Origin: Elsinoe ampelina
Lineage: Eukaryota
DNA: 64,000 nucleotides
Assembly: GCA_010093995.1 (NCBI GenBank)
Contig: ML992509.1
Coordinates: 103,588-167,587, forward strand
Direction of reading: 5' to 3'
Shown: positions 9,166 through 47,880 of the stretch, piece after piece
Layout of the letters: each line of letters starts with the position of its first letter
How positions within the stretch are numbered: the stretch's first letter is position 1
Notes under the pieces: generated by a model
The model's database searches: none
Told to the model about the DNA's origin: nothing
The model's input: the letters and a program-made list of their open reading frames with translations, nothing else
Made by a program: the position numbers and the translations under genes

Positions 9166-9270
9166 NNNNNNNNNNNNNNNNNNNNNNNNNNNNNNNNNNN
9201 NNNNNNNNNNNNNNNNNNNNNNNNNNNNNNNNNNNNNNNNNNNNNNNNNNNNNNNNNNNNNNNNNNNNNN
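9166..9270. other. Assembly gap (run of N)
   Basis: 105 N bases inside the copia element. Confidence 1.
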
Positions 9271-13418: not shown

Positions 13419-13640
13419 TATTATAGTAGATACTATAGTAGACACTACGGCAGATACTATAGTAGACACTATAGTAGATACTATAGTAGGTACTATAGTT
13501 AAGGCTATAGCAGGTACTATAGTAGGTACTATAGCTAATACTAAGGCTTAGTAAGCCTCTATCTGCTAGAGATAGCCTAGTAGTCTTCCTAATAATAATA
13601 CCTTACTACAGTTATAAGCTTCTAAGCTAAGTACTTAATA
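13419..13640 (+). repeat. Gypsy 5' LTR (222 bp) containing a 12-bp tandem array (YACTATAGTAGR)
   Basis: Near-identical to 26305-26526. Confidence 0.92.
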
Positions 13641-18400: not shown

Positions 18401-21400
18401 TAGTCTATATAGTATACTCTATTTAGCTTTCTAGTCTTTATAGTATAGAAAAACGTTATAGATGACAATAGGGAGCCTATCTATAAGAGCTATATAGTAA
18501 TAGACATCTGCGGCCTTAATAAGATATTAGAGAAGAACTTGTACCCTATACCGCTCTAGTTCGATATTATCTCCTAGTTAAGTAGAGCTTTATATATTAG
18601 TGTTATAGACGCTGTCTCTTTCTTCTACTAATAGCTAGTCGCGGAAGAAGACTATTATAAGCTTACTATTAATACCTCTCGAGGACAAGAACACCTTAAT
18701 ATTACCTCTATAGGCTACTATAATAGCGTATAATACGTCTAAAGGCGCTTAGACGCTATTCTCTATAGCCTTTATAAGTTTATATAAGCCTATATTAACG
18801 ATATCTTTACGCGCTCTACTACTCTAGATAACTATCTAAACTACCTAGAGTAGTTGTTTAAGCTACTAGACGATATAGATGTTAGCCTTAGCTCTAGTAA
18901 AACCTTCCTAGGCTATTCCTCTATAACTATTCTAGGTTATAAGGTCTCTAGCTTAGGCTTAGCTACCTATAAGAACCGCATCTAAGCACTTCTAGATGTT
19001 GCCTTTCTAGAGACTCTAAAGAATCTAAAGCACTATCTAGGACTTACCGAATGTATATATACGACAATTCTATACTACGCCTAGATTATAGAACTACTAT
19101 AGGCTCTAAAAACTGCTCTACTTAAGGCCTTACCTAGTAATAAAGGAGAGGCGCGTAAAGCCTATAGCTATAAAACTCTAATTATAGCCGTACTTACGGA
19201 CAAAGTTCGTGCTAATACTCTTACTATCTATAATACTCTCCGCGAGCAATTTAAGGACCTTAGTTTCCTTTACTACTATAACTCTAACCGCCGACTCTAC
19301 GCCGACGTCGATAGTAGCTACTAGTAGAGCTATAGTGCTATAGTCTATATAGTTAAGAGTGACCTCGATCTAGTTATAGAAGATAGTAAGGCTGCTTACT
19401 TCCCTAACTTCGATCTTAAGGTAATTACTTTCCTTAGTAAAGGGCTAAACACAGCTAAGAAGAACTACTAGTCTACTAAGCTAGAGGTTATAGGCGTAGT
19501 CTAGCTCTTATATCGAATCTACTATATAGCCGAAGTAAGTACTACACTACTTGTCGTTTTTACTAACTATTATACTATAGTTACACTATTAAAGTAGTTA
19601 AGCCTAATAACTATAACTAGCGTCGACAAACTTAACTTATAACTAGTTAGAGCTTTATAATACCTTTCCTAATTTAATCTCGACGTTCGCTATCGCCCTA
19701 GACATATATATAAGGTACTTAACGCTCTAAGTTACTTAATAGAAGATTACTCTAAGGTAGACAAAAACAAGCCTAATACTCTCGACCTATTTTCGTATAA
19801 CTGTACTATAGTCTAAATAAAGAATCCCTTTAAGAACGAGCTCTATAAGGCACTAGATAATAACGAGAAGTATAGACCTATACTAGAGAAAGCTAAAAAA
19901 GTAAAGGAAATTAGAATTAAGGTTATAAATAGTAAAGATACGAAAGATAATATATCTCTTAACTTACCTTTCTTCCTTAAGGATAGTCTCCTCTACTTCT
20001 ATAATAACGGCAACTGTTTCGACTACCTCTATATTCTCTAAGCTATAGTCTAGGAAGTGTTTAAAATAGCCTATAATAACAAGTTCTATTCGGGTTTCTA
20101 TTAAACTATAGAACGACTTAGAACTAGTATCTATATCCGCGGACTAACTAAGAAACTAAAAAAGTACATTAAACATTATAAGATCTACTACCTTAATTAG
20201 ACTACGCGCTATAAGTCCTATAGCGAGCTTCGTCTAGTAGTTACCCCGAATGTCTCGTTCTATACTATAGTAGCGAACTTTATAACGGATCTACCTATAA
20301 TAAGGTCGAACAAGGATTTAGTTATATCTATAACTAATAAGGCCTCTAAACGTATACTTCTAGTACTAGGTAGAAAGGACTAGACTATAGACAACTAGGT
20401 ATATATATAGTTAGACATAATCTTCTACACTAGATAGAATATACTAGTAGAGTTTATATTAGATAGGGATCCTAAGTTCCTATTAGAATTCTAGACTATA
20501 GTATTTAAGAAACTATATATACGAATACTAACATCTATAGCCTACTATCTATAAATAGATAGGTAGTTAGAACGAACTAATTAGACTATAGAACTTACCT
20601 TCTAAATGTTTATAGCCGAGAACTCTAATAGTAACTAGGAGAAGATTATTCTCTATATTATAGTATTCTATAATAACGCCTATAACTCCTTAACTAGAGT
20701 ATTGCCTAATAAGTACCTTTACGGATTCTAGCTCTATACCGACTCGGTCTAGCTTATGTTAGAGCTTAACTAGGAAGATTAGGTATAGCTTTAAGCTAAA
20801 GTAAGAAAAGCTACTAAAGACTTACTATACTTTGCCTAACGTTAGATAAAAGCATAATACGATGCTAAGTATAAGTAAATCACCTTTAAGCTAGGCGACA
20901 AGGTTTTCCTTCGTCTTAGATATAAATACTAGTTAGTAGTACCACTAGGGAAGCTTAGACCTCGACGAGCTAGACTATTTAAGGTAGAGAAATATATTAG
21001 AGAGTTAGCTTACAAATTAGCAAACATCGGAGACTTAGTTTAGCTAAAGAACATCTACCCTATAGTGTCGGTAGTCTAGTTAGAGAGAGTACTATAGGAT
21101 AAGGACCCCTTTAGTAGGACAGTAGTAGAACTAGAACCGGTATAAACTATAGACGACACTATAGACGAGAGAGATACGTATAAAATCGATATACTTATTA
21201 ATAAGAGAATACTATAGAAGAAAGGCAAGGCTATTACATAATATCTAGTATAATAGAAGAGTTATAGCGTGTAATACGATGCTTAGTACAACAAGGAGAA
21301 TTTAAAAGATATAAAGGGTTTAATAGAGAAATACGACGCTTGTTATTCTAGACAAAGATTAAGGATTAAAGGCAGACTAAAAGGAAGAAGAGAGATAAGA

Positions 21401-21410
21401 TAGGCCTAAT
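15450..21410 (+). pseudogene. Gypsy gag-pol pseudogene (many RIP stop codons); boundaries approximate
   Basis: gag-like IGYF*P (~15610); protease FNIGAG (~17408; cf. DTGA); RT AYINDI (18788-18805; cf. YIDD); RNase H LYADVDSS (~19295) and NY*STKLE (~19463); integrase FILDRDPKF (~20453) and AYYL*IDR*LERTN*TIE (~20540; cf. AYHPQTDGQSERTNQ); chromodomain YKI..LINKR...YLV**KSY (~21180-21270). Confidence 0.85.
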
Positions 21411-21649
21411 AATTACTTTTCTTTATTGCTATAACTATATTATTATATCTCCTTACTAAATTTCTCTTTAATCGGTAAAATTTTTATACTATAGTAAATA
21501 CTATAGCGGGGACTCTAGATGCTAGCTTTATATACGGTCTTAGCGCGCTACCCCTCTAACCTTAAAGCTAAAACATAGTAAACACACTAACATTAACACT
21601 ACTAGCTATACTTACGCCTTTTTATATAGTATACACTACCTAATTATTA

Positions 21650-24600
21650 CCTTCTCTAAGCTCTCTATTAACTATAGTAACGGATATCTACTCGCTAGAT
21701 TCTCTAGGCTATACTAAGGGGAAGAAGGCACCTTCTAAGCTATCTACCCTCTCTAAGAATAAGCAATTAAGAGACTACCTTTCCTTAACTAGCTATAAAT
21801 ATAAGAAGCTTAAGAAGAGTATATACGATATTCTCTAACTCTCTAAAGATAAATACGACGCCCTTATAGAAAATAATATACTATATTACTCTACTCTCTA
21901 TATCGTAGTTATATATACCTTAACCGCGGAAGAAGTACTATTATTAATCTAATCCCCTAAGGGTTTTATATACTACGTCCTAAATAATAGAATTAAAAAC
22001 GCTACTATAGCTACTATAGTACTAGGAGACGTAGGTCTAAACCGGAAGAAAGTCTAGAAATTTCTTCGCCTACTAGACTTGCCTACTATATCTACTTCGC
22101 TAATCTATTTAGTATTACTCGAATGCCGCGCAAAAGGTAAGGTGTTAATAGCGGACTAGATTATAGCTATAGAGGCCCGGGGTGTTTCTAATATAATAGT
22201 AGTAATAGAGGTAAGTAGAATAGATAACCCCGAAGGTATAGTAGACATTAGGAAGTACCTTAGAGACAAGGCAAGCGAAGTAGAGCCTACGATAGAGGAC
22301 TAATAGACAATTTTCAAAAGGTAAAAGGCTTTTATAGAGCTATAGAGAGTCTTACGTACGACTAATCTAAAAGGGGGCTATATAAAGGAGCTAGTAGATT
22401 ATATAACCTAGCTAGTAGAGATCTACGAAGGGCTAATAGATGTGTCTTTACTATTCTACACTAGTAGCTACTTAGACTACAAAGTTAGCTACTGTCTCTA
22501 TTATAGTAAAGTAGACTATATAGTTGCTAATAAAGGCAAGAACGTTATACTCTATATTAAGTTCTTTAATCTACGCTTTATAGACGTAGTAGACCGACAC
22601 CTCTTTAAGATAGACCTGCGTACTTACTTTAGGTCTCTCTACTACGCTCTAGAGACTAATATTCGACTACTAAAGTTTCTAATATAGTACGTAAAGCTAG
22701 AAGCGCCTTTCTCTACCTTAGAGGCTATCGTAGTATAATAGCCTATTAAGTCTATAACATATCTAATTATATAGCTACTAGCCTATATCTTGTTTTTTCT
22801 TAACTTAATACTAATCTCCGAAATGGAACTAATATAGTACCTTATAGTCTTTAAGGTGCTAGAGCTAAGTAGCACTATAAAGGCCTTATTTAGTTAGGTA
22901 GCCTTAGACGAATAGAACATTAAATCGCCTAAGATCCCTACTTTAGTTATTTTTAACATACTTATCCCTTTCGATGCTAAACAATTAACGTTTATATACT
23001 AGCTTACTATTAAGTTCGGCCTAATATTTCTAACCTTAAAAGAGACTACGGAATTTCTTAATTAGTAAAGGCACGTAGCGGCGAAGCTTGTTACTAACTA
23101 GATATATAACTAGGAGTAAGCGGAAGGTAAGAAGAGAGCCCTAAGAAGAATAGTAATAGAGGATTAGAACGTAAGTATACTAAACGTAGTAAGAGTTATT
23201 AGACTAGGCGAGTAGAGGCATATTAATAATATTAGAATAATAGTATTAATAGAGGAACTTATAGACGAGTTAAGAGAGGAGAAGCTTATAGTTACTTATA
23301 AGAACATACGCTCCTTAGAAGGAACATCCTAATGCGTAGTAGACCTATTAGCCGAGCTTAGAATTAACTCTAGTAATAAGTAGTTAGGCTATTAAACCTA
23401 CCTAGTCTTCTTAGCTCTAGAAGGCTATACCTTAGAGGAAAGGACAATTAAGGGATAGATAGAATAGGTTAAGAATAACAATATTAGTAGATATAATAAA
23501 CATATAGTGTTTAAGGTAGTACTAGAAGCTAGACTTTATAAAGATACACTATATAACGCTAATACTATCTACGACTCCTTCCTAGCTATAGAGTATATCC
23601 CTCGTAAAATAGACAACTTTAAGAATAGCTCCGTAAGATTAGATACAATGCTTATATAGCTAGGCTCTACTCTATAGAGGGGAGTAGTATAGTTCGATAT
23701 TGCTATAACAACTATAGAGATCTCTTATATCGCACAACGTAATAATAAAGACTCTACTATATTAACTTAACACAATTCGTAGCTATATATATAGCTACGT
23801 AGAATCGATATTAACACTAGAATCGCCTAGGCAATTATAGTCTAATCTACTCTATCTACTAAAAATATTAACTAACACCTAAGAACTAAGCTCGATTACT
23901 AGCCCTATAAATTTAACTTTCTAACCCTTTTTACAACTACTACGGTCAAAGCTATAGCAACTAGCATAGCTGTTATACATAGGTAAACTCTAGATATTAG
24001 TCTAGCTCTAGTAGGAGAGTATAAGGAAATAGTTTACATCGATAGTAGTACCTAAATTATCTATGTTAAATACGTTTACGACGCCTTCTAAAGCTTAGTT
24101 ACGCCTAACGCTATGCCTCCTACTAGCGTCTATAACATAAGCAACTTTATCCTTAGCTAAATTATTAAGCTTATACGTAAGAAGATAATCTTAGGAACTT
24201 AGTATAGTAAGGTCTACCTAGACATCTTCGAGAATAAAGTACTTAGATTGTCCTATAAAAACATAAACCTACTCTACTTCTATATCTCTCCGAGGGATAA
24301 TACTTAGAGGGTTTCGGTCCTCTATAGCGTCTACGTACTAGGCGGAATATAGGTCCGGGACTATAATATCTTATAAGTTAATAGGAGGGACATAATTAAG
24401 TCTAACTAGCGCCTACTCTTTTATAATAATTAATTAGACCTTTTCGAGCTATATAAAGGCTATATCGACCTAAAGAAGATCTATATCCCTACTATTATTA
24501 ACTATAGGTCCGTCGATAAGCTATATATTAAGCTCCTATAATAGATCGTAGACTACGCTAGGCCCTAGGTTAACCTAGTTACTAAATATATTTACGACAA

Positions 24601-25750
24601 AATTAAGAGTTTTATAAGCTCTAGGGAGGCCATATACGATTTTAACGATCCGAAGTCCTTAAACAAGGACGGCACCTAGGCTAACATATTTAACAACAAT
24701 TGTCGTAAGTAGAAGTATACTAGTAACTCGATCTATACTAGCGCCTCTATCTCTAGGGACTCTTCGCCTAATAACTATACCTTATTCTCTATAAAACTTA
24801 AGGATAAGCCTATAGCCGGTTTTACCTACCTCTACTTAGTAAATAACTAGCATAGGCTACCTCGTTATAAAGAGGTAGTACTAGAGGAGAGCTATAGTAG
24901 AGCGTTAGCCTTAGGCGCGGAATTTAACTCTAAGGTAGATATAACTAGAGTTAAGTTCGAAGGAACTATCTCTAACAATAATAACGACCTAATAGTACTA
25001 TCTAACCTATAGCTCCTAAGCTTTATTAACTTTGTTAATAGCACTTTTATTATAATAAAAGCTTATATAGCTAAGGGTAAGAACTTTAACACTAGCTTAA
25101 TAAGTAACTCCCTTATTAAACTCCTAACTAATACCGCTAACAAGTTCGATATAGACCTAGCCGACTTTAAGGGCTTTCTAGTAACCTATACTAAGCTTCT
25201 TAAGAGTAACCTAGCCGACCTAAAGGTCGAGAAGAAAATGTATACTATAATCTAGCACATCGAAGAAGCCTTTGTATAAAAGGCCTTCTAATAAAGGAGC
25301 GCGGCTACTTAGCCTAAGTTAAGTATCTAGCTACCTCTATATAAGCGTATATAGCTCCTAGAGACTCCCTATTAGTCTATCTAAAGGAGCACTCTCACCT
25401 CTAAGAGATTTATTATACTAGGCACTATTAGTAAGAGCGATAAAGAAAAAGTAGCTAGGATCGATATAATGCCTACCTATAATCTCCTCGAGTATAAGAA
25501 CTATATTAGACGTAAGAAGATTAAGATAGCTAGTCTAGTAGCTAAGACAGCGGCGTAGAACTTTAAGAAGCGCTACTTAAAATTCAAGCTTAAGTCTATA
25601 TAGGATAAGGAGATACTAGGGAGTAGCCTAGCTAAGTATAGTAGTAGCTTTAGTTCTTATAAGAGATAGAGGTATAACACCTATACATCTACCGACTACT
25701 ATAGCTTACTCTTCTAAGTCCTTTAATACGCGTTTAACTATGTTAATAAG
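21650..25750 (+). pseudogene. Extra RIP-degraded coding-like region of unknown family between gypsy pol and the 3' LTR; boundaries approximate
   Basis: Long + strand stretches translate to protein-like text broken mainly by TAA/TAG (e.g. VYLDIFENKVLRL; LDLFELYKGYIDLKKIYIP; ANKFDIDLADFKGFLVTYTKLLKSNLADLKVEKKM); includes the 22442-22687 ORF. Confidence 0.55.
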
Positions 25751-26304
25751 ACTTACCTCGACGTGTTACTAAACTATAATAACTACCTCTAACTACTTCT
25801 AACTTAATACTTAACTATAATACTCTCTCCTCCCCTTCGAATATAGTATAATAGAATAGTACGTTAAGAGTATAGCACGGAATAGCGAGGTATAGTATAG
25901 AAAAATAGCATAGTATAGTTTAAAGCATAGAGTTTAGCTTGTATAATACCTACGTAGCCTTAGCCTTATATACTAGACAGGATAGAGTTTTATAGAATAA
26001 TAGAGCTTTAGGCTTAGCTACTAAAGGAGTCTTCGGATCTCTTCTAGACTATAGAATAGCATCCCCCGACACTAGACCTAACTAGCTATAGACTATAGAC
26101 TAAAACGGGAGTAGATAGACTAGCTTATCTAAATCTATAAATAGAGCTTCTAACTATAGATGTTTTCCTTTATAACTCGACTATTTAGAGTAATATTTCT
26201 GTTCGTAGCACTCTAATAGTAGTACTTTAGGTAATAATAGCGTGTAATTAATGACAGTAATAAGGCCTAGGGGTAGGCCTTTTATTTGTTTAGGCCGGGG
26301 GACC

Positions 26305-26526
26305 TATTATAGTAGATACTATAGTAGACACTATAGCGGATACTATAGTAGACACTATAGTAGATACTATAGTAGGTACTATAGTTAAGGCTATAGCAGG
26401 TACTATAGTAGGTACTATAGCTAATGCTAAGGCTTAGTAAGCCTCTATCTACTAGAGATAGCCTAGTAGTCTTCCTAATAATAATACCTTACTATAGTTA
26501 TAAGCTTCTAAGCTAAGTACTTAACA
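26305..26526 (+). repeat. Gypsy 3' LTR (222 bp), ends in CA
   Basis: Direct repeat of 13419-13640. Confidence 0.92.
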
Positions 26527-27033
26527 CTATAGATAAGAATCTTCTTCTAGCTAAATAATAATAAGAACTTATAGTATAATTAATAACTAAATAAGGCTAG
26601 CTAAATTAGCTAAGGCCTTATATTATTTATTATACTATACTTATTCCTTCTTATATATCTAGAAGAGTACTAAGAAGTTAATATTTACTACTTCTAGCCT
26701 CTAAGGCTTAGAGAGCTCCTCTAGCTTAATAGTCTTCTAGGGATTAATAAGGTTCTATATCTTAGTGTTTAAAGCTCTTATCTTAATAATATATAGCTAG
26801 CTAGCCTATTTAGCCGATATAGTAAGAATAATAGGTGTTCTAGCTATTAAAGTGTTAGTATCTATAGTTATTTATCTCTTTATTAATACTTAAATCCTGT
26901 AGTTATAATTAAGGCAGTTCTTAATAGATTCTAATACTTAAAAAGCAAGATAATAGAGAATTAACTAATAGATTAAGTAGGAAAGCAACTAAGTAATATA
27001 CTTATATAGGGGTAGTTATACTAGGCTTATAAC

Positions 27034-33205: not shown

Positions 33206-36200
33206 ATGGCCGACGCAAAGGGAGGAGCAGCGAAGACGAATGGCCATTCCAACGGCCATCCGAGCTCGTACGCTGCAAAATTCAACCTCCCCTCACATTT
33301 CATAGGCGGCAATGAGCTTAGCCAGGCTCCGCCGTCAAAAGTGAAGGACTTTGTGGCCGCGCACGATGGTCACACGGTCATTACGAATGTAGGCTGCTTT
33401 TGCTGAGGAGCTGGAGGCGGTTGCTGACTTCCTGGCAGGTTTTGATCGCCAACAACGGTATCGCTGCGGTCAAGGAGATTCGGTCTGTACGCAAGTGGGC
33501 GTACGAGACATTCGGCGATGAGCGAGCGATCCAGTTCACAGTCATGGCCACGCCTGACGATCTGGCTGGAAATGCAGACTACATCAGGATGGCCGACCAA
33601 TACGTGGAAGTACCAGGTGGCACGAACAACAACAACTACGCAAATGTCGAGCTCATTGTGGATATTGCTGAGCGAATGGGTGTACATGCTGTATGGGCAG
33701 GATGGTAAGACTCGATTCAAGCAGCTCAGAAGGCACACAGACTGACCACATTAGGGGACATGCTTCAGAAAACCCAAAGCTCCCAGAGTCCCTCGCTGCC
33801 TCACCCAACAAAATCGTTTTCATCGGTCCTCCCGGTTCCGCGATGCGATCCCTCGGTGACAAGATCTCCTCAACAATCGTCGCACAACACGCAAAGGTAC
33901 CGTGTATACCATGGTCAGGAGAAGGAGTAGACCAGGTCAAGGTAGACAGCAACGGCATTGTCACAGTCGAGGATCACATCTACGACAAAGGCTGCGTACA
34001 CAACCCGGAAGAGGGTCTCGCAGCCGCGAAGAAGATCGGCTTTCCCGTCATGGTCAAGGCGTCAGAAGGAGGAGGTGGTAAGGGTATTCGCAAAGTCGAA
34101 CGAGAGGAGGACTTTGAACAACTCTACAAGGCCGCGGCCAGTGAAATCCCCGGCTCGCCAATCTTCATCATGAAGCTGGCTGGCAGCGCTAGACATTTGG
34201 AGGTACAGCTGCTTGCTGATCAATATGGCAACAACATCTCGCTTTTCGGTCGTGATTGCTCGGTACAGCGGAGACATCAGAAGATCATTGAGGAAGCTCC
34301 AGTCACAATCGCAAATCAGCAAACGTTCCAGGCTATGGAGCGAGCTGCTGTGTCTCTTGGACGACTCGTCGGCTACGTGTCAGCAGGTACCGTCGAATAT
34401 CTCTACTCCCATTCCGACGACAAGTTCTACTTCCTCGAACTCAACCCGCGTCTGCAGGTCGAGCACCCGACCACTGAGATGGTGTCTGGTGTAAACTTAC
34501 CAGCGGCACAGCTGCAGGTAGCCATGGGCATTCCACTTCACAGAATCCGCGATATTCGACTTCTACATGGTGCCGACCCGAGAACCTCCACTGAGATTGA
34601 CTTTGACTTCTCGAAAGAGGGCAGCAAGCTCAACCAGCGACGTCCCCAGCCCAAGGGCCACACGACTGCTTGCCGTATCACATCAGAAGACCCAGGCGAG
34701 GGCTTCAAGCCTTCAAGCGGTGCATTGCACGACTTGAACTTCCGGTCCAGCTCGAATGTCTGGGGATACTTCTCTGTTGGTGCTGCATCGTCCATTCACA
34801 GCTACTCGGATTCACAATTCGGTCACATTTTCGCATACGGCGAGAATCGACAAGCGTCAAGAAAGCACATGGTTGTCGCATTGAAAGAGCTGAGCATCAG
34901 AGGTGACTTCAAGACCACCGTGGAATACCTCATTAAGCTTCTCGAGACACCTGCGTTCGAGGACAACACCATCACAACTGGCTGGCTCGATGAGCTCATC
35001 TCCAAGAAGCTCACAGCCGAGCGTCCAGATCCGATGGTGGCTGTTATCTGCGGAGCGGTAACAAAGGCACACCTTGCGAGTGAGGAATGCATGACAACAT
35101 ACAGGAACAGTCTCGAGAAGGGTCAAGTACCGTCAAAGGACGTGCTCAAGACTGTCTTCCCGGTCGACTTTATCTACGAGGGCATGAGGTACAAATTCAC
35201 CGCCACAAGGTCAAGCGTAGACAGCTACACTCTCTTCATCAATGGCTCGAAGTGCGCAGTTGGCATTCGGCCATTGTCAGACGGAGGCATTCTTGTTCTT
35301 CTCAGCGGCCGCAGTCATAGCGTATACTGGAAGGAGGAAGTAGGAGCCACTCGTCTGTCAGTAGACAGCAAAACCTGTTTACTCGAGCAAGAGAATGACC
35401 CGACGCAACTTCGGACACCTTCGCCTGGTAAGCTGGTCAAATTCACCATCGACAACGGCCAGCACGTCAAGAAGGGTCAACCATTCGCCGAAGTTGAGGT
35501 CATGAAGATGTACATGCCCTTGATTGCGCAAGAGGATGGTATTGTCAACCTCATCAAACAGCCAGGCGCCACTCTTCAAGCCGGTGACATTCTCGGCATA
35601 TTGGCTCTCGACGACCCGACAAAGGTCAAGTCAGCACAGCCCTTCCTGGGCCAATTACCCGATTTCGGTCCTCCACAGGTCACTGGTAACAAGCCGCCTC
35701 AGCGATACACATTCCTCTACAACATTCTCCGCGACATCCTCCAAGGCTTCGACAACCAGGTCATCATGCAGGAGTCGCTGAAGGAGCTCGTCACTGTACT
35801 CAGAGATCCAGAGCTACCATACGGAGAGTGGAATGCGCAAGCATCTGCACTTCATGCTCGTATGCCACAGAAGCTTGACTCTCAGCTTAACCAGATCGTC
35901 GAGAGAGCCCACAGCCGTGGTGCGGAGTTCCCGGCGAAGCAGCTCCAGAGGACATTCTCCCGTTTCCTTGAGGAGAACCTATCTGCTAGCGATGCGGAGA
36001 CCCTCAGGACCAGTCTCGAGCCGCTACTCGTCATTATGAATACCTACGCGGATGGCCTGAAGGCTCATGAGTTCAGCGTCTTCATCTCATTGTTCGAGCA
36101 ATACCATCTCGTCGAGAACCTCTTCTCTGCGAGGCAGAACCGAGACGACGAGGTCATCCTTGCTCTGCGAGATCAGAACAAGGACAAGGTCGCCGAGATC

Positions 36201-39200
36201 GTGCACACCGTTCTTTCGCATACCAGAGTCAGCACGAAGAATAACCTCATCCTCGCCATCCTTGACACGTATCGGCCAAACAGACCTGGTGCGGGAAATG
36301 TGGCCAAGTACTTCCGCCCTGCATTGAAGTTGTTGGCTGAGCTCGAGTCTCGCTCGACCGCAAAGGTCGCACTGAAGGCCCGTGAGGTGCTCATCCAGTG
36401 CGCCATGCCTTCGCTTGAAGAGCGTATGTCGCAGATGGAGCACATCTTGAGATCATCAGTACTTGAGTCGAGATACGGCGAGAGCGGTTGGGATCACAGA
36501 GAGCCTGACTTTGACATCATCAAGGAGGTCGTTGACTCGAAGTACACTGTCTTTGACGTACTTCCACACTTCTTCGCCCATCAAGATCCATACGTGTCGT
36601 TGGCTGCGCTGGAAGTGTACACTCGTCGCGCCTACAGGGCCTACCAGCTCAAGACAATCGAATACAATACCGATATCGAGGCGCCTTTCGTCTTGCTTTG
36701 GGACTTTGCTCTCCGCAAGGTCGGTCAATCAGAGTTCGGTCTGCCTGTTGAAGCTTCGCACCCATCGACACCCGGCACGCCCGCTAGCATCGGCGACTTT
36801 TCTCGTGTCAACTCCTTCTCGGACATTAGCAAGATCAAGGATCAGACTGATGCTCAACCGAGAAGAGGTGCTGTTGTGCCTGTCCAATACCTCGATGAGG
36901 TTGATGAGGCTCTTACCAAGGCACTGGAGTGTATTCCAAGCAACGGCTTCTCCAAGAAGAGAGGCTCAGAGTCGGGCACCTTGATGGCAGATTTGAGCAG
37001 GAAGAGGACCCACCCCACCCAGCAGCCAGAGAACACTGATGATCTGACAGCTGTGGTCAACGTCGCGGTCCGTGACGCTGAGAGCCTGGACGACAACGAG
37101 ATCCTGGAGCGCATCAAGCCTATTGTGGGCGACTTCAAGGCCGAGCTTTACGCTCGCAAGGTCCGTCGCCTGACTTTCATCTGCGGTCACAAGGATGGTA
37201 CTTATCCTGGATACTACACTTTCCGTGGTCCCTCGTACGAGGAAGATGAGAGCATCCGTCACATCGAGCCTGCTCTTGCATTCCAGCTTGAGCTCAGCCG
37301 CCTGAACAAGTTCCAGATCAAGCCTGTCTTCACCGAGAACAGGAATATCCACATTTACGAGGCTACTGGCAAGGGCGTTGAGAATGACAAGCGCTACTTC
37401 ACTCGCGCTGTCGTACGACCAGGCCGTCTCCGAGAGGACATCTCCACGGCGGAGTACATGATCTCGGAGGCTGACAGGCTCATGACCGACATCCTTGATG
37501 CACTTGAGATTATCGGCAACAACAACTCCGACATGAACCACATCTTCATCAACTTCTCAGCTGTCTTCCCATTACAGCCCAAGGAGGTCGAGGAGGCTCT
37601 TGCTGGCTTCCTCGACAGATTCGGTCGCCGTGCATGGAGACTTCGCGTCACGGGCGCTGAGATTCGTCTTATTTGCACAGATCCTAACACTGGCGAGCCA
37701 TACCCACTCCGTGTCATCATCACCAACACATCAGGATACATCATCCAGGTCGAGCTGTACGCTGAGCGCAAGACCGAGAAAGGTAACGAGTGGGTTTTCC
37801 ACAGCATCGGTGGCACGACCAAGATTGGATCGATGCATCTCCGTCCTGTGTCTACCCCATACTCGACCAAGGGTGCTCTCCAACCAAAGAGGTACAAGGC
37901 TCACATCATGGGCACACAATACGTCTACGACTTCCCAGAGCTGTTCCGCCAAGCCGTCGAGAACAGCTGGAAGATCACGACTTCGCAACATCCTCATCTC
38001 AAGGAGAAGCAGCCCAAGCAAGGCGAGTGTATCGAGTATAGCGAGCTCGTGCTGGATGACAGCGATAACCTCGCTGAAGTCAATCGTGATCCTGGCACAA
38101 ACACCATCGGTATGGTCGGATGGATTATCACTGCTCGCACACCTGAGTACCCACGCGGCAGACGCTTCATCATCATCGCCAATGACATCACGTTCAAGAT
38201 TGGTTCTTTCGGTCCGCAGGAAGATAAGTTCTTCCACAAGTGCTCAGAGCTGGCTCGCAAGCTTGGTATCCCCAGGATCTACCTGTCTGCCAACTCCGGT
38301 GCTCGTATCGGTATGGCAGAGGAGCTCATTCCTCACTTTTCCGTGGCTTGGAAGGACCCGAAGAAGCCCGAGGCAGGCTTCGAGTACCTCTACCTTACTC
38401 CGGAGAAGAAGGCGCGCTTCGAGGATGGTGCTCTCAAGCATGTCCTCACCAAAGAGATCAAGGCTGACGGCGAGACTCGACACATGATCACCACCATTGT
38501 TGGTGCTGAGGACGGTCTCGGTGTGGAGTGTCTCAAGGGTTCTGGTCTCATCGCTGGTGAGACTGCTCGTGCGTATGAGGACATCTTCACCATCACCCTG
38601 GTCACCTGCCGATCCGTCGGTATCGGTGCCTACCTCGTCCGTCTTGGTCAGCGTGCTATTCAGATCGAAGGTCAACCTATCATTCTCACCGGTGCGCCCG
38701 CCATCAACAAGCTTCTCGGTCGCGAGGTGTACACATCCAACTTGCAGCTCGGAGGCACTCAGATCATGTACAAGAACGGTGTCTCGCACATGACTGCGAA
38801 CGATGACTTCGAGGGAGTGTCTAAGATTGTCAAGTGGTTGTCGTTCGTGCCGGATAAGAGGGGTCAGCCAGTGCCTATCTCCCCATCAGCAGATGTGTGG
38901 GACAGAGATATCACATACACTCCTCCACAGAAGCAGGCTTACGATGTGCGGTGGTTGATCAACGGCAAGTCGGATGATGAGGGATACCTATCGGGTCTCT
39001 TCGATCGCGGCTCATTCGAGGAGTCACTCGGTGGCTGGGCTCGTACTGTTGTCGTCGGCCGTGCCCGCCTTGGTGGCATTCCAGTCGGTGTCATTGGCGT
39101 TGAGACGCGATCCGTCGAGAACGTCACGCCTGCTGACCCGGCCAACCCCGACTCCATTGAGCAAGTCACTCAGGAAGCCGGTGGTGTCTGGTACCCCAAC

Positions 39201-40239
39201 TCTGCGTTCAAGACTGCTCAGGCGATCCGCGACTTCAATAATGGTGAGCACTTGCCGTTAATGATCCTGGCCAACTGGCGTGGTTTCTCTGGTGGTCAGA
39301 GGGACATGTACAATGAGGTGCTCAAGTATGGTTCGTATATTGTTGATGCGCTCGTCAAGTATGAGCAGCCGATCTTCATTTACATTCCGCCGTTTGGAGA
39401 GCTGCGTGGTGGTTCATGGGTAAGTTCATCCGAAGATTGTCGCAGAGAATCATATACTGACAGGTCTGCAGGTGGTGGTGGATCCTACCATCAATCCTCA
39501 ATTCATGGAAATGTACGCGGATGAAGACGCCCGCGGCGGTGTCCTCGAACCAGAGGGTATCGTCGGCATCAAGTTCCGCAAGGAGCGTCAACTCGAGACC
39601 ATGGCCCGTCTCGACGCCACCTACGGCGACCTCAAAGCCAAGCTCGCCGACCGCAGCCTCACCACCGAGCAACAATCCGAGATCAAGAACCAAATGAACG
39701 CCCGCGAACAACTCCTCCTCCCCGTCTACGCCCAAATCTCCCTCCAATACGCCGACCTCCACGACCGCGCCGGCCGCATGAAAGCCAAAGACACCATCCG
39801 CGCCCCTCTCGTCTGGAAAAACGCCCGTCGCTTCTTCTACTGGCGCCTCCGCCGCCGTCTCAACGAAGAGCACCTCCTCAAGCGCATGGCCTCTGCCGCA
39901 CCCAAGGACGCCTCTCACCCCACCGCTGCGGCTGCCACTGGCTCCTCCGCTTCCGCAGAGGTGCTATCAATCCGCAAGTCCAACCTCACACAGCTCGCTG
40001 CATGGAGCGGCATCACGGGCTTCGAGAACGAGGATCAAAAGGTCGCGCTGTGGTACGAGGAGAACCGCAAGACGGTGCATGAGAAGATTGAGAGGATTAG
40101 GACGGATAGTGTGGCGTATGATGTGGCGAGTTTGTTGAGGGGGAGTAAGGAGGGGGGACTCAAGGGGGTGAGGGATGTGTTGCAGATGTTGCCTGTGGGA
40201 GAGAGGGAGGAGGTTTTGAAGTTTTTGGCGGCGAATTAG
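33206..40239 (+). CDS. ACC1: Acetyl-CoA carboxylase (exons 33206-33388, 33439-33704, 33755-39419, 39472-40239; alternative in-frame ATG at 33188)
   Basis: Biotin carboxylase [16 protein letters not shown] and [13 protein letters not shown]; biotinylation motif EVMKM; carboxyltransferase SANSGARIG and [21 protein letters not shown]; three canonical introns. Confidence 0.98.
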
Positions 40240-41485
40240 AGGGGACTGAGAAGAGGGCATGAGAAGAGGAGGGAACATAAGGAGATTGAGAGGACGGGGT
40301 TGAGAGAACCGCAACGAGGGCGGTCGGATTGGCGCGTGCCAAGGGTCTGGCAGGGATGGAAGGAAATGTAGACTTAGCTGCGTGGTGCGTTTAGTGTTGC
40401 TTACATAGGCGGGCGTTTCATTAAGGTCTTAAAGTATGTGGTCTTGCACCGCAAAGCGATGTCTCAGCTGGTGCCCTAGGAAATCCCGAGGTCAAGCTTG
40501 ACATGCTCGTACGAAATGGCAATCGCGGTTTGGCCAAGAAGCGGTCGCCTGGCGGCATCTGCCCTGGGACCTCTGTCACGTCAAGGTTCGAAGCAGGAAC
40601 CGCACACAGGCGATGCAGTCGCACGTCGTTAAGGAGAGCTTCTTCTATCAACGACTACAACTTCACGTCCAAGATCTCGAATGGTCAAGAATGGGACGCG
40701 AACAGCACATAAATTTCCGTGCATGATCCGGCCAGACCGAAGGCTGCCTTGACCTGCTCTTGCTGGCGGATGATGGCAAAGAGAGTGGCTGCAGGTTACT
40801 CAGCCGCAGATTGTCGTCCAAAAGTGTTGCACAGCCTTGCCCCGCTTTCGTCACTGTGTCTCGTTTTTTGGGCCGTCCTTGCAACCTTGCTTGTGTCGCA
40901 AGCAATACACAACCTTATCCCCATCAACAACAGCTAGTTCAGGCGCTAAGGAGAACATCAGGGACCATGAAAGATTGTTGATTGGTTCAACAGTGCCAGC
41001 AAAGAGCACAAGCTTTCGTTCACATGAAGTGCGCACCGTCTCCGTGCATGGTAGGTGACACACTATGAAGCCCATAATCTTCTTCCCCAGCAATCTCGGC
41101 CCCGATATGGCTATCAGTGCGCATTACGGCGTCGAAGACGCGCTAATGTTCCTTTCTCTCCAAAGCAATCTCACCTCCAGGGCGTCGGGCTACCAGCATG
41201 TCCACCACTTGGCATGGAGATATAAAGAGCTTGCCTGTTCCTCGTAGGTTATACAGGTTGCATTTCGTAACAGCTCTTCATCTCACGCTCAATTTATAGC
41301 TACCTAGTGTGCCGAAGGTCGTCAACAAGACACACCAACCTCTCAATCATCCTCGAAGTAGTGTACTATCGCGGACCGACCTCCTTTTGCCTCGATCTTG
41401 CTCCCCGAGCCTGCAACACACACGTCGGCAATACACAAGATGGTCCTCACCTCAGTCATCGACCATTGGCTTCACGTCACCGACC

Positions 41486-41847
41486 ATGAGTGTCGACAGC
41501 CTCAGCAACGAGTCCATCATCGCCCTCGTCACCTTGTTCACTATGATTACCATTGCCCCTGCTGGATGGCTCGTTACTCAACACCTTGCACGAAGAAGTA
41601 CTACCACTATGCCTCCCTCAGCACTAGTTTCTAATGCATAGTAGATAGGATATATGACCACTTCAACCACCAAGAAGACCGCTTCAGTCGTGAGTGGCGC
41701 ATCCTCGCCAGCCTCTTCGACATCTGGAGAGGCCACCGCCCACCACTGGGGGAGATACTCGACGACGTCATCACTATCGGGGGCGAAGATGATGATGGAG
41801 GACCTGGGTTAGAGCTGGACAGAATGAGGAACAGTGAGGAGGTCTGA
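41486..41847 (+). CDS. Single-TM microprotein A (~105 aa; exons 41486-41597, 41642-41847)
   Basis: MSVDSLSNESIIALVTLFTMITIAPAGWLVTQHLARR|IDRIYDHFNHQEDRFSREWRILASLFDIWRGHRPPL...LELDRMRNSEEV; phase-1 intron GTACTA..CTAAT..TAG; TATAAA at 41221; paralogous to B and C. Confidence 0.7.
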
Positions 41848-43089
41848 GAAGAAGGGACAAAGGAAAAGGAGGAACATGTATAAGAGTACGACCTTGAACG
41901 ACAGCGTGTACGGATAGTTACCACTTGCATAGCACGGCGTAAACACGATTGATGAAGACCAGTTACGTCCCATGGAACAAAATTTATTCAACTGAAATGG
42001 TGTTGCATTGATGCCGTGTCGCAAAATGACAAGTTTGGTCAGGTATGGTGATGATTGTGATGAAGAAGCGGAAGTTTCGACTTTGCGGAGAAGCTGTGGT
42101 TGAAAGATCATCAAACCTTGCCCGAGCGTACCGAGATATCGGGGAAGTTTAACGGTTGGTGGATCAACTCTCGGGGTCGTCGATCCATGTGGAACATCTC
42201 TACGTCCGTTAATTAAAAGATTAACACACTGGGAGTCCCAGTATTCGTGCAGTTCCAAACCCTGATTTGAGACGGAGATGGTAGCATGTAGCTCAGCACA
42301 TGACTACTCACTGATCTTCGAAGATCAATTTGAGCTTCCTCGGTGCGGCTCGGAAACCCCAGGGTCTAGACCCATCCATCTATCCACGCGAACGCCTGTT
42401 CCTGACCGCGCTACAGCTCCCCGTCTCCACCACTGTGACCTCATAGTCACGATTCTTCCGACCTGCCGACCACTAGAATCGCGATATGATCGTCCGAAAT
42501 ATTTCAATTCAGTCCAGTGTGACGTCGCGGCCATGCACACCTGGACGCTGCGGCTAATCTGGAACAATACTGAGGCTGCGAGTCCGCAGATCCATCTCGG
42601 ATCAAGTCCGGTCATATCGCCAGATGGAAGCGGTCGTGCCAGGCAGACGCTATAAGTTCCTTACGATGGCGGAGATATCGCTACATGCATAGCTCTCGAG
42701 GCGGCTGAGCACTTTGGCATTGATGCTCGAGCTACGCCGCATCCCACCCTAGGGGGTCGATCTCAACACAGGCAACGTCACTTTCTATGTCGAAGGGGAG
42801 TCTAGATGTCGCAACATGACTGCACATACAACTAGTCGCGTCCATCTTCTTGCACCTACCAGGTCTTAAGACCATTCAAAAGCCGCGATGATACCCGCCA
42901 CATCACGATCCTCATACTCCCTAGTCTTCACGGCAATCGTGCCTGTCCTCGCAGATCAGAGCCACCCACCCTGCACAGAGCTCTTATAAGCCTGGTATAC
43001 ACGGCAAGCGCTCTTACCGCAGAGAGGCCAATCCCGTGGGCCGTCAGGCTTACTCGCTCGTTGAATGTGACCTGTCGAGGGCTCATCCA

Positions 43090-43446
43090 ATGCCGCCGAA
43101 GTCACTGAGCGATGAGTCCATCATCGCCCTTGCTACACTCCTCGTCACAGTAACATTTGGTCCTTTGGGATGGATGATCAATCGCTGGCTGGTAGAGAGG
43201 CGTGAGCAAGCTCCCAAGCGATAACAAATTTTGGGCCCGTCGAGCTGACAAGGTGCAGGTAGACAGAACATACGCCGAGGAGACACTGGTTTTCGATGTG
43301 AGCATAAGTGTTGGGGCTTGAGTAGGTTGTGCTATGTTTGGATAGGTGATAGGTTGCCTCTACTCCCAGTGATCAGCCAACTTCGTGCCACTGAAGGAGA
43401 AGTGCTGTCAATGGAACTGGACAGAGTGGAGCTGGATAGAGTTTGA
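43090..43446 (+). CDS. Single-TM microprotein B (99 aa; exons 43090-43201, 43259-43446)
   Basis: MPPKSLSDESIIALATLLVTVTFGPLGWMINRWLVER|RRQNIRRGDTGFRCEHKCWGLSRLCYVWIGDRLPLL...MELDRVELDRV; intron GTGAGC..GCTGAC..CAG; exon 1 is 112 nt, the same as in A. Confidence 0.75.
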
Positions 43447-44193
43447 AGAGAGCCTGGAGGATAGAAGGCTCCTTGTGTACCATAGACGGGAGATAACGGA
43501 TACGCGAAGGGCGAAGAAGGGGAAACGAGATTGGTGGACGAACCGGAGCTTCGCCCCCCAAGGGACATCGCGCTTGGAGACGGTCGGTGATCGGACGCAG
43601 TCGAGCTGTGTATGAATACTGCCTGTTCTTGAGCTTTTTCTGTAGAAATGATGAAATTTTGCCTGCGGATTGCTATTTAGTCGTCCTCATCTTACGACTT
43701 TTGTCTTGTTGTGGGATGTTTGGGCAGCACTGGGGCTGTGCAATGCGGGCTCCTCCTCCACCAACGAGCTGATGATAGATCACCTTGTAATTATTCACGT
43801 ATGTTGAAGGTTGGGATTGGCTAGTCCCCTGCACAGACAGCCTGCAGACCTTCCCGAAGTGTAAGATGTCCTGTTCATAGCGCTTAGAATCACGATCAAG
43901 GCGGGCGAAGCTCAACATAGCCTCTCTGCCTTAATAGCCTCTTTGCCTTCATAGCTCAGCGGCGGTGTAATGTATTCTATAAAGACTCCATGAAACTCCT
44001 TCATGTCTCCTCATTATCACCCTAAAAAGACTTGGAACAAGCCCACCTTTGCTGCGTGGCTTTCAAAACAAAAACGCGAGGTAGGTACCATGTCCGTCCT
44101 ACACCATTTGTCCGCAGGCACACCTGTTTTGCACCCGTCCTCCTGCCCTAGCAAACATACTTTGACAAGGCATCGCTTCCTTACCTTCACAAC

Positions 44194-44416
44194 ATGTCCA
44201 CAGTATCTATCACTTGGTCGAATGAAGCCATCATCGGTCTCACTACCCTCCTCACCACTGTCGTCATCGCTCCCATTGGCTGGTTCGTTGGACAGATGCA
44301 CTACAGGAGAAGTAAGATACCATCAGCATGGACGAAGACTATTGTACACCTACACTAACGCAGAGAGACACTTCTCCTATCAATGCGATCACCTATGTCC
44401 CGGCATACGAGCTTAA
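44194..44416 (+). CDS. Single-TM microprotein C (56 aa; exons 44194-44311, 44364-44416), possibly truncated
   Basis: MSTVSITWSNEAIIGLTTLLTTVVIAPIGWFVGQMHYRR|KRHFSYQCDHLCPGIRA*; intron GTAAGA..CTAAC..CAG at the homologous position; TATAAAAG at ~43978. Confidence 0.65.
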
Positions 44417-44938
44417 TGCTATGCTATAAGCAAACAAGCATGCCGTAACTGTCAGGACAGCCATACGTGCTTGGAGGCGACGGACGGGAAGACGGGATGC
44501 TGTGGAGGTGGTGAAGGGGCTTGTCCGTTGGGGGAAGGGAAGAGGGTAGACCGGAGAAGGCGTGGGACGATCTTCATCGACCAGTGCGACAAGCATGACT
44601 GAGATTTGGTAGTCACCTCATTTCGACGAGTGGTGGGTTGGTCAGGCGTTAGGAGTCTTCTAACATGAGGTCAATGGAGAGATTTCAACCCACCAGACAC
44701 CCCGATCCCTTGCAACCAGGATCAAATGCTATGAACCCGCCGTCCACTAGTCTCGTGCAAGCCAGGTGATCTCTCAATCGGATCTCATGGAAGAAGAAAC
44801 GTGCCGTAAAATTACACTCTTTGGCGAGACCAGTTCCACTTTCGTCAACTGTCACTGGCGCATTCAGACTATCCGGTCCTGTTCTTCGAGATTGATCGCC
44901 TTGTGCTCTTTCCAACGTTTCGCAAAAAGTATTTTGTC

Positions 44939-47173
44939 CTATGCGTATTGCATGACCCCGTCGTCACCGACTCCATCTCCTTCTGCATCTTCATCTTCGT
45001 CGTCAGGACTGTCTTCACTTTGACCCATCATGTCGCCTCCTACACCCAGCATGTCATCATCATCCGGGTCATCAGCGTCATTATCCTCGTCGTCTTCTCC
45101 TCCCTGATCCTGAGCCTGTTCAGCATGAGCCATCATCTGCCTTCTGAACTCATCCTCTGCATTCGTTGCTGGATATTGACCGTCTGCAGCGTGAGGAGTG
45201 GTATTTGCGGGGCCCGTTGCCTGCAGAGAACCTGGTGGCGGATTGTGCATCTGGCTGCCTCTAGGCGCTCGGTTGGCAACACTTGCTATTACATTACCAT
45301 TCGTATATTGTGGTTTCGATGCTTTCGGCGGCGGGCCTTGATAGAAGATCGGCCACTGGATGCCGCGGCCTTTACGTTTTTTATTAGGGGCAGAAGCGTC
45401 AGACTCGGATGGACGTTTCTCGCCGGTTGTAGGTGCAGGTCCGGAAGCGTAAGCCCCACCATTCAGTGGCGGAGGTTGATACTGTGAAGCTGCTGGGGCA
45501 GATTGTGGTTGCTGCATGTACTGCGGTTGCTGAGGCGTGTATGGCTGTGGAGGGGGGGGATAGCGATAGCCGGGCGGGGGAGCTGCGTATGGCGACGCGT
45601 ATTGGGTCGCCGGCTGAGGGTAGCTAGGCTGTGGAGGAGGTGGTGGCGGTGCATATACAGGTGGTGGAGGAGCTGGCTGAGGGTAAGCTGGCGGCTGGGG
45701 AGGTGGCGGAGCTGGTGCGGGTAGAGGAATGACAGGTTGATCTGGCAAGCAGGGGTGTGATGGAGTCCCTGGAAAAGCAACCTTGACTCTTGCGAGAGTC
45801 TTTAGAATATGATACAGGTCTTCGAATTTTGCAATTGTGCCAAAGCCGAGGCCATGGCGGGTATCTTTGGGCATAACGTCGTCAATCGCTCTGCGTGCAG
45901 CCGAGTCGACCTCGGAGAGATCAGTGAAAGGACCATTGTCCGGTGCAGGAGTCGTGTGACTCTGAGCCGAAGGGGCTGGTGTTGGCGTAACTTGGGCTGG
46001 TGGTTGCGCAGACTGTTGAGGGGTGGCGGTTGCGGGAGCAGCAGCTTGCATCTGTGCCGACGGAGGTTGGCTTGGGATTGGGGTGGATTCGCTTTGAAGA
46101 GGCGGTTGTGAGACGGAAGCTTGTCTCTGCAGAGCTTCCTTGTTCGCCTGTGCGGCGTGCTTGGACAGAGCCTGAGCTGCAACACATCCTTCAACGATGC
46201 AGACATCGAAGCCCCTATCGGTAGCATCACGCACTGTGTCTCGTATACCAGCATTCACACTGAGACCAGCGATGATGAGATTCTTGATACCACGGTTGCG
46301 GATGACAAGATCGAAATCAGTGTAAGCAAATACAGAGGACCGAGGATGGTCAAACATGAGTTCGCTGTACAATGGTGCCAGCTCCTGAACGGGGTCTGTT
46401 CCAATACTTTGCCGCAGTAAGAAGTGGCCAAGAGGACCAGGAGTACCCGGAACTAGATCTTGAGCTGTGAATGTGGGAAGGGGATGGCCAGTCCTTGAAT
46501 TTACCGCAACAGGTTGGATGCGAGCCCGATCAAGCCCGGTGAAGGTTGAGAGATCATGACGGTGAGAGTGACGTGCGTGGTAGATGGGAAACTGGGCACA
46601 TCTGAAAGCATGGAGCAGCTTCTGCAGCGGTGGAAGCATAGTGCGTGCGGTACTGATGGGATGACCAAGCTGATCTAGGAAGCCACCAACGTTGACGACT
46701 TAGCCGGCATTAGCATTCGCAGTCTTCGAGATTTGACGGCAGAAGTCTACATACAGTCCTGCTGCATGTCTACAAGTAACAGGGCAGTAGTATCTGCCCT
46801 GACCAGACCCTCATGAGGAAACCAGTACGGCTCCGCTACGAGCTTCGTCTTCGGAGGCACCGGGTTCGACGGTGCAGGATTCTTGGGACGTCCTCTGGGT
46901 CTCAATTCCTCGTCAGGCAGTTCCTCCCGTAGCAATTGAATGATATCATCCTCCTCGGTATGCTTGGCAAGAAAGGCCTGAGAGACCATCAGCATAGGAC
47001 AGACGCGAGGATGAAGCTCTTACCTGACATCGTCGCAGATGATTCACCTTTCTTTTACCGGAAGACTTTGCGATACGTGCAGAATTGCAATGTCTGCACA
47101 CAACTTGTGGTGACTTGCCATCTCCATCAACAGGTATGAACTCCTGCGTGATGAGCCCAGGTGGGCGAGGCAT
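44939..47173 (-). CDS. BED-like zinc finger / AT-hook / degenerate isochorismatase-family (biuret hydrolase-like) protein with P/Q-rich and acidic regions (710 aa; exons 47173-47024, 46977-46755, 46698-44939)
   Basis: Exon 1 VVCRHC...NHLRRC; exon 2 RPRGRPK and AEPYWFPH...TTALLLVDMQQD; exon 3 FVNVGGFL...GPLGHFLLR...FAYTDFDLVIRNRGIKNLIIAG...DRGFDV. Introns GTAAGA..GCTGAT..CAG and GTATGT..GCTAAT..AAG join in frame (2133 nt). Confidence 0.85.
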
Positions 47174-47880
47174 GTCTCGTGGAGAGCCAAAATGGCGGGA
47201 GGGAGGCTCGCGTCGTGGTAGCTTGGAAAAAGATGAGATACGAGGATGCCCAAGGAGGGAAGGAAAAGCAGCAGGCGGTTGGTGACGCTAGCCCTGAAGA
47301 GGAAAAGACATCAACTTGGCAATTTTGATTTTTTGGCGTTTGCTGTCGTCTCTTCTGATTGGTGCATCTCGCTATACACCACCTCCAAAGACATGGCTCT
47401 CTCACATGCGAGCAGAACAAGCTCCAAGTCGTAAATGTCTGACCGATTGCTTAAGGTTGGTAAAAGCGACAATTAGGGCTTGGGATGGACAATTCCTCCG
47501 ACGCCGTTTCTGTCCATGCAATGCATGTGTCAGCATTTTGCCATGTCATCAGCGGAACAGCTCCGAGATCCGGAAGCTGACGACGATCGTCGTTCGTTGA
47601 TCCGCAAGCCAAAGTCAATTCGCTCACCAATTGTCGGGGATTAACAAATCGCTTACCGATCCCAGCAATGACCTCGAAATCACGTCTTCTCCCCAAAACA
47701 ACGGGCTGCCCCTCCCCGTACATCGTATAGCGTAAGGTTTGTACCTGCTGAGGCAAGATTGCATAAGAGCTTAGCTGTACATCACATGCCGCGACTCTGT
47801 TCCAGAACCCACTGCCAGCTCCCCCACCGCTTCCCAGAGCTCACCGTACCTTATCTACCCCTCCTGCAGCTTTAATATAA

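Follow-up and report, generated by a model that had tools for sequence, protein, structure and literature searches.

What is encoded between the acetyl-CoA carboxylase gene ACC1 and its right-hand neighbour, a convergent isochorismatase-domain gene, in Elsinoë ampelina? The interval runs from the stop codon of the one (position 40239) to the stop codon of the other (44939). Positions are those of the window, the whole 64,000-nucleotide stretch of contig ML992509.1 that was analysed. An earlier note, made from the sequence alone, had called the interval apparently empty and had placed in it a tandem trio of paralogous genes for single-pass membrane microproteins, here A, B and C. The trio is a real, spliced and conserved tandem array, and it belongs to an unnamed family in filamentous ascomycetes whose members are predicted to be type III microproteins (N-terminus out, C-terminus cytosolic). 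For A it is very likely, and for B and C less so, that the gene is genuine and its product membrane-anchored. As to function, we tentatively prefer the reading that the products assist larger membrane proteins as accessory subunits or adaptors, by a mechanism inferred below.

Three related genes and their spliced transcripts

The proposed layout of the trio holds. The three genes are co-oriented, with ATGs at 41486, 43090 and 44194, GT donors at 41598, 43202 and 44312, and first exons of 112, 112 and 118 nucleotides (nt) that each end in phase 1. The products have 104 (A), 99 (B) and 59 (C) residues. The "tail motif" in the following list is a hydrophobic residue, then Glu-Leu, then D/E/N/G.

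41486..41597, + strand: gene A exon 1 (37 codons and 1 nt), short acidic N-terminus, anchor helix and basic patch
41516-41575, + strand: gene A anchor helix, residues 11-30
41598..41644, + strand: gene A intron, 47 nt, GT-AG, phase 1, skipped in contigs of runs X3 and X5 from two studies
41645..41847, + strand: gene A exon 2, an amphipathic second helix, then an acidic, disordered tail (tail motif at 41809-41820)
43090..43201, + strand: gene B exon 1, anchor helix at residues 11-30 (43120-43179)
43202..43258, + strand: gene B intron, 57 nt, GT-AG, phase 1, skipped in run X4 only
43259..43446, + strand: gene B exon 2, two tail-motif copies at 43411-43437
44194..44311, + strand: gene C exon 1, anchor helix at residues 13-32 (44230-44289)
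44312..44367, + strand: gene C intron as observed, 56 nt, GT-AG, purine-AG acceptor 9 nt past the branch A, skipped in run X4
44368..44429, + strand: gene C exon 2 as read in the observed frame, with a tail motif at 44406-44417

The splicing data are assembled contigs from four of ten public runs (three studies), compared over 39300-45300. These runs are not on record as RNA, and their RNA status was taken from skipped introns. The contigs indicate presence only, neither strand nor level, and gaps in their cover were not used. A control intron in ACC1 is skipped in all four runs. The A intron is skipped in two of the four, the B intron in one (depth 2.3, with 20 letters on the short side) and the C intron in one (depth 9, with a side of 175 letters and an unambiguous joint). 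Contig depth is low for these genes, A in one run excepted. Thus, A, B and C are transcribed and spliced, as the earlier note had predicted.

The copies are alike well above chance. Exon-1 peptides share 13 invariant columns out of 39, and the similarity of exon-1 DNA (z 7.6-9.9) was matched by none of 300 shuffles for any pair. The tails of A and B are also related, as had been noticed (z 4.45; 1 of 1000 shuffles). Tandem small paralogues are common in fungal genomes. This set is an old one, with synonymous sites near saturation and with introns and upstream 400 nt that are unalignable and no more alike between copies than shuffles. The suggestion that the copies are too diverged for repeat-induced point mutation (RIP) is borne out. 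The longest gapless window of at least 80% identity between copies is 30 nt, far below the length that RIP needs, and the RIP signature is absent from the interval (TpA/ApT 0.68 vs 2.04 in the AT-rich block at 9-27 kb). That block (9001-27000) has a GC content of 0.32 and a strong RIP signature.

One gene model had to be revised. C had been given an acceptor at 44363 and an end at 44416, but the observed joint is at 44367, which changes the frame and puts the stop at 44429. The discarded acceptor is at +5 from the branch A. The acceptor in use lies 9-11 nt past the branch A in all five introns with a recognisable branch site (39420-44367), and nearer AGs (3-7 nt) are bypassed in all four introns that have one. 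This spacing offers a simple gene-model rule for this fungus. A minor C isoform that uses 44363 may still exist.

The new frame has a consequence for the Cys/His motif C(E/D)H.C.G(L/I), which had been read in the tails of both B and C. It exists in the DNA (z 4.42) but falls outside C's observed product. Second exons of B and C align at the DNA level over about 130 nt (z 8.85; 0 of 500 shuffles). In the B-like frame of C the two differ at 5, 7 and 9 sites at codon positions 1, 2 and 3, and a stop (44414-44416) stands where B has Leu, with homology running on past it. Therefore, we read the Cys/His stretch in C as what is left of a former tail, in a reading frame that has decayed. Reading-frame conservation holds for the trio, with C exon 2 as the exception. 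What does C have in place of the older tail? The tail motif is present in the observed frame (shuffle chance 0.006), at a position that is not homologous to B's, and absent from the two others. It would seem from the sequence that the ancestral tail of C was replaced through a change of splice site and frame, which makes the gene a compact example of how a splice-site shift can rewrite a tail.

The interval is less empty than it had appeared. Further spliced RNA and candidate upstream elements lie within it:

41221..41226, + strand: TATAAA box, 265 nt 5' of A, candidate element
41244..41299, + strand: intron ahead of the A coding region, within either a 5' leader or a read-through transcript, skipped in X3, one of four runs
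41440..41442, + strand: out-of-frame upstream ATG (-46 of A) in strong context, starting a 53-codon frame over A exon 1
42328..42788, + strand: spliced contig of low depth, lying between A and B, with an unusual donor at its intron (42364-42416)
43978..43983, + strand: TATAAA box, 216 nt 5' of C, candidate element
44301..44353, - strand: antisense intron of 53 nt, its donor, branch site and acceptor all matching consensus, overlapping the C intron, skipped in X5, one of four runs

TATA-like boxes had been claimed for all three genes; A and C have one, but B has a weaker variant only. TATAWA occurs at six + strand sites in all of 27.5-64 kb, two of them the boxes 5' of A and C. The donor of the intron at 41244-41299 is 23 nt past the TATA box. 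In run X3 one contig extends from ACC1 across the whole gap (40240-41989) into A. This points to read-through, or to a start farther upstream, but one contig need not be one transcript. The upstream open reading frame (ORF) of A (41440-41647) finishes at A's splice joint. An ATG-stop at -25 lies in the B leader and two out-of-frame ATGs lie in the C leader. The contig between A and B is possibly a non-coding RNA; it has no family motif, and its longest + strand ATG frame is 40 codons. The antisense transcript over C is perhaps a long 3' extension of the isochorismatase gene. A search of Rfam gave no matches in 40200-45000.

An anchor shared across two fungal classes

The part that unites the trio is a 20-residue hydrophobic segment (mean Kyte-Doolittle value 2.0-2.15) behind a leader of 10-12 residues. 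It ends in P-x-G-W and is followed by a basic patch, just as first described. The C-terminal flank is more positive than the N-terminal flank in 25 of 27 family sequences and equal in the other two; the charge values are +4 in A, +6 in B and +3 in C. A positive C-flank bias is described for N-out signal anchors (PMC13220792). On sequence grounds, this supports the proposal of an old paralogous family of N-out signal-anchor microproteins.

Which residues of the anchor are kept? L17 and W28 are invariant, and I12, P25 and G27 are kept in 20, 19 and 20 of 21 aligned rows. Small or polar residues occupy positions 13, 16, 20, 24 and 27, which line up along a single side of the helix (160-240 degrees; permutation p 0.023). 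Exon-1 pN (nonsynonymous differences) is below pS (synonymous differences) in all three trio pairs, and dN/dS of the helix is 0.31-0.35, rough estimates from 19-32 codons with one pair saturated over the longer block. The anchor is under purifying selection. The helix is conserved far above the tail (31/32 vs 31/67 identical residues between A and its E. batatas orthologue). The family had been called diversifying, and this is true of tail turnover but not supported in the sense of positive selection.

The AlphaFold model of that orthologue has a helix at 8-39 (predicted local distance difference test score, pLDDT, 79-94 by blocks), another at 48-68 and a disordered end; the mean pLDDT of the whole model is 68. 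The second helix is common to A, the E. batatas orthologue and unit 1 of an E. fawcettii protein (tail z 30 and 10.7), and the B tail has drifted away from it. In A it is amphipathic, with a moment of 0.73 for which no null was computed. Foldseek returned no match at E 0.001 or below, and the best structural match (Z 5.2, root mean square deviation 3.5, 63 aligned) is a generic helix pair.

Where else does the family occur? Single-protein searches of the 28.3-Mb E. ampelina genome found at least four further loci: a 217-residue single-exon gene, models of 66 and 164 residues in which a phase-1 intron follows the helix, and a locus that has no tail. The last (L006:1450-1590) has a family-like anchor and then an immediate stop (29-46 residues) and is possibly a remnant. 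These dispersed paralogues sit among unrelated genes (an actin-capping subunit, a potassium transporter and others). Therefore, the link with ACC1 looks positional only, and a functional one was rejected.

A profile built from the three exons matched 19 proteins at E ≤ 0.001 among 1.84 billion representatives, one of them a false hit. The top three come from E. fawcettii, E. batatas and E. australis, and the other named ones from E. ampelina and Sordariomycetes. The E. batatas protein KVT40_008790 is the orthologue of A (tree support 95/91). Like A it has 104 residues, of which 63 are identical, including 31 of 32 over residues 6-37, and a tail of equal length. The E. fawcettii protein D9617_2g059910 (P0001) has two anchor units in one 200-residue chain, one B-like and one more C-like; unit 1 is identical to B exon 1 at 20 of 32 residues. 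Probably this model merges two tandem genes, or else it is a real two-helix fusion. E. australis has one annotated copy (B9Z65_731). Consecutive locus tags and accessions, on contigs of equal length, put the family gene next to the isochorismatase orthologue in both E. fawcettii and E. australis, a synteny that is by locus tag without DNA and on the isochorismatase side only. All of the Elsinoë relatives are annotated as unnamed hypothetical proteins. It had been thought that gene finders would miss such genes, but relatives in these three species are annotated and so are two E. ampelina paralogues (BDZ85DRAFT_277454 and BDZ85DRAFT_24971, which match L005 and L004); the fused appearance of the E. 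fawcettii model speaks for the claim. The trio itself is absent from the protein search results, and its three intron-retained forms are not in the collection, though the species' own isochorismatase is missing there too.

Sordariomycete relatives come from Nemania, Xylariaceae, Coniochaeta, Apiospora and Cladobotryum. They are unnamed single-pass proteins of 50-116 residues that have the common helix motif and N-out charges, and in several cases the tail motif, with tails that cannot be aligned. For one Coniochaeta protein the trio makes up the best three of five matches in the E. ampelina genome. Of 30 matches in the ESM Atlas, 24 belong to clusters whose members have no Pfam family in common; the best three are mostly Ascomycota. 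Named clusters gave no usable match. Pfam cut-offs were reached by none of five trio exon products and none of 22 relatives. A tree of 28 anchors over 32 columns leaves 17 of 25 inner branches, and the monophyly of the trio, unsettled. No description of the family was found in the literature, as seen in listings and the starts of abstracts (subscription papers or supplements could list the genes), and no paper was found for four of the Elsinoë locus tags.

A scan of metagenomes reduced 38 pattern matches to three loci. L017 is a fungal-looking relative, and L018 and L019 were discarded as GC-rich chance matches; P0011 and P0024 were dropped from the protein set as false hits. In L017 (2456-2950) and P0025 the helix ends in Cys-Pro or Cys-x-Pro instead of P-x-G-W, and a candidate phase-1 intron lies past the basic patch. 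This subfamily suggests a larger superfamily. As a query, P0025 found nothing in the E. ampelina genome. A control search with SKG6 had no match anywhere, and one with Mid2 found a single locus that has no tail motif.

Tails and a short acidic motif

What is new here is that otherwise unalignable tails have the hydrophobic-Glu-Leu-acidic motif in common. It is present in 13 of 27 tails, with 0.57 expected from within-tail shuffles. (Two false hits, the tail-less remnant, L017 and the two frames of C that were not observed are not among the 27.) Its density is 9.8 per 1000 residues in tails vs 0.56 in six window ORFs. Tails of rhodopsin-domain receptors from the same genome served as a control, and the motif is in 2 of 18 (0.77 per 1000 residues; P 0.14); these are the 18 of 30 fetched loci, from 130 matches, that reached the domain end. 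The 130 matches to this domain (Pth11-like, PF20684) are genome-wide and counted per exon, and one is in the window at about 3460-4180.

The ELDR seen earlier in A and B is an instance of the motif. Its core, E-L-[DE], is in 11 of 27 tails with 1.2 expected. Outside Elsinoë, 5 of 17 tails have the core (0.45 expected); with a single Apiospora row the count is 4 of 14.

What might such a motif do? The acidic motifs DLE and MELAD (the latter of plant SYP31) drive export from the endoplasmic reticulum (ER) in plant cells (PMC2718219). Such di-acidic signals (DxE/ExD) are alike in having an acidic-Leu-acidic core in a cytosolic tail, but the form in the trio's family has a hydrophobic residue before E-L. 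By analogy, the tail motif may act as an ER-export signal.

Five of 28 family sequences (A, B, P0002, P0006 and P0018) end in acidic/polar-x-Val. Presumably such ends resemble PDZ-binding or C-terminal valine export signals.

Function and competing explanations

How would an adaptor of this kind work? The 20-residue segment would be a signal anchor that escapes cleavage and enters the ER membrane with its short N-terminus in the lumen, as the flanking charges suggest. The small and polar face of the helix (A/G13, T16, T20, A24 and G27), with P25 and W28, would pack on a transmembrane helix of the partner. The motif in the variable cytosolic tail would be the docking site for a factor in the cytosol, for which a vesicle coat such as COPII Sec24 is the simplest candidate, and this binding would move or tune the membrane partner. 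The helix would then be the conserved functional core and the tails would be free to turn over fast.

There are known systems that would work in a similar way. The likeness to phospholamban/sarcolipin, FXYD, KCNE and yeast Pmp1/Pmp2 is one of working only. Regulins have one helix with a conserved binding face and a short cytosolic tail, and act on a larger membrane protein. However, they have no sequence or profile match to the trio or its relatives, and the trio is a member of no described family. Another likeness is to HIV-1 Vpu, which has a short N-out end, a single helix in which a Trp comes late, a basic patch, an amphipathic helix and an acidic sorting motif. This is a likeness of architecture, not homology. 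The top PDB rows have an E of 0.05, which is not significant, and cover 19 hydrophobic positions, and the trio consists of intron-containing genes of a fungal cell. Animals and bacteria have well-known single-pass microproteins that tune pumps, channels and receptors; in filamentous fungi such proteins have hardly been surveyed. Here two features, one face of the helix and a brief motif in the tail, mark out an unnamed family present in two classes of fungi. Point mutations in either feature could lead straight to the partner, and perhaps to a sorting signal in fungi.

What if the idea is taken further? The family might be a widespread, overlooked group of ascomycete membrane adaptors with a helix-binding face and a dedicated, undescribed sorting motif, the motif being selected enough that C regained it in a new frame after the acceptor shift. 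If true, C is a tail replacement caught in the act. We think this unlikely.

A number of observations do not fit the adaptor reading well. Splicing of B and of C is each seen in a single run, and an unspliced contig in X3 spans both genes. C is overlapped by spliced antisense RNA with an intron nearly exactly opposite its own, retains a decayed tail and uses an acceptor of the purine-AG class, a rare one that accounts for 5.69% of Fusarium introns (PMC5677156). Out-of-frame ATGs are present in the leaders of all three genes. One-sided clustering of conservation on the helix is weak (p 0.076). The motif is missing from 14 of 27 tails, including those of both E. fawcettii units and two E. ampelina paralogues, and from the metagenomic relative L017. 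In addition, the pattern was fixed and widened after the sequences had been seen, and the rows are related rather than independent, so the P values for the motif overstate the case. Triplets of the generic form [DE]x[DE] show no enrichment (16 of 27 tails vs 13.35 expected; P 0.10), and the COPII reading is therefore only one option.

Perhaps, then, only A works. B and above all C could be decaying duplicates with RNA that is low-level, dominated by antisense or silenced by upstream ATGs. The single-run splicing, the antisense intron and the leader ATGs would all suit this, as would the B-like tail of C, which is out of the observed frame and stopped with homology beyond. In addition, the B tail compared with its probable E. 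fawcettii orthologue gives a z of 1.3, which is not significant, against 10.7 for A. However, exon 1 is intact in B and C with pN below pS, and both introns are spliced. The tail motif is present in two copies in B and in one in C's new frame, short members of 50-58 residues exist in other fungi, and E. fawcettii retains two units at the locus. Decay of B and C is unlikely.

A second possibility is that the helices bind each other. Homo- or hetero-oligomers would act on the membrane as a small pore, a proteolipid or an inducer of curvature, and no larger partner would be needed. The helix does have a stripe of Thr and small residues, which can drive self-association. The amphipathic second helix of A and the best PDB sequence match, the transmembrane helix of the viroporin Vpu, could be taken the same way. 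However, the match is at chance level, the helix has no charged or strongly polar residue to line a pore, and a conserved linear motif in the tail points to a cytosolic partner. A homodimer prediction for residues 1-70 of the A orthologue scored 0.02 in two runs (mark 0.32), but was made without an alignment and counts neither way. Self-association as the whole story seems to us rather improbable, and adaptors with a separate partner are still preferred.

Could the anchor lie in mitochondria, or in another organelle off the secretory route? Mitochondrial outer-membrane signal anchors use the same charge pattern of an N-terminal anchor with a positive C-flank. The best Pfam match, COX8 (PF02285), seems to point in this direction, with E values of 0.018 in A and of 0.01 and 0.0036 in two relatives, but all scores are 15-18 bits under a cut-off of 24, and this family was rejected. 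No presequence is present, and the mean hydrophobicity is about 2.0-2.5 over 20 residues, which favours capture by the ER. A location of this kind is quite improbable.

Of the functions suggested earlier, that of a membrane regulator is favoured, but those of a recognition factor or a toxin-like peptide found no support. Non-self-recognition or cell-death factors under diversifying selection would explain tandem copies, fast tail turnover and a copy number that differs between species, but exon-1 dN/dS is below 1, no alternative letters are seen over the trio at covered places in the four runs (contigs drop rare variants) and no NLR/HET gene is among 13 window ORFs and 6 flank ORFs scanned, which leaves this very improbable. 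Equally hard to credit is a cleavable signal peptide that would release the tails as effector- or toxin-like peptides of a plant pathogen: the small size, the N-terminal hydrophobic segment, the pathogen genus, transcripts in a run that may be infected tissue and (-3,-1) rule sites within the helix (a crude scan) could be cited for it, but only 0-1 Lys or Arg precede the helix and a basic patch follows, the hydrophobic part is the most conserved part, Cys counts of 0 (A), 3 (B) and 0 (C) are not those of secreted Cys-rich effectors, B and C have no (-3,-1) site at the helix end, and the family is present in Coniochaeta, Xylariaceae, Apiospora and Cladobotryum, many of them not plant pathogens.

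The neighbours of the trio are as follows:

33672..40239, + strand: left neighbour, main ORFs of acetyl-CoA carboxylase ACC1, stop codon at 40239
44939..46699, - strand: right neighbour, last exon of the isochorismatase-domain gene (PF00857), convergent with C, synteny marker

The isochorismatase-domain gene as a whole (44939-47180, - strand), which the earlier note had labelled a zinc-finger chimera, has a first exon with Cys/His and a long C-terminal part that is Pro/Gln-rich and acidic. Its orthologues have 721-729 residues in Elsinoë, and a relative in Myriangium has 537.

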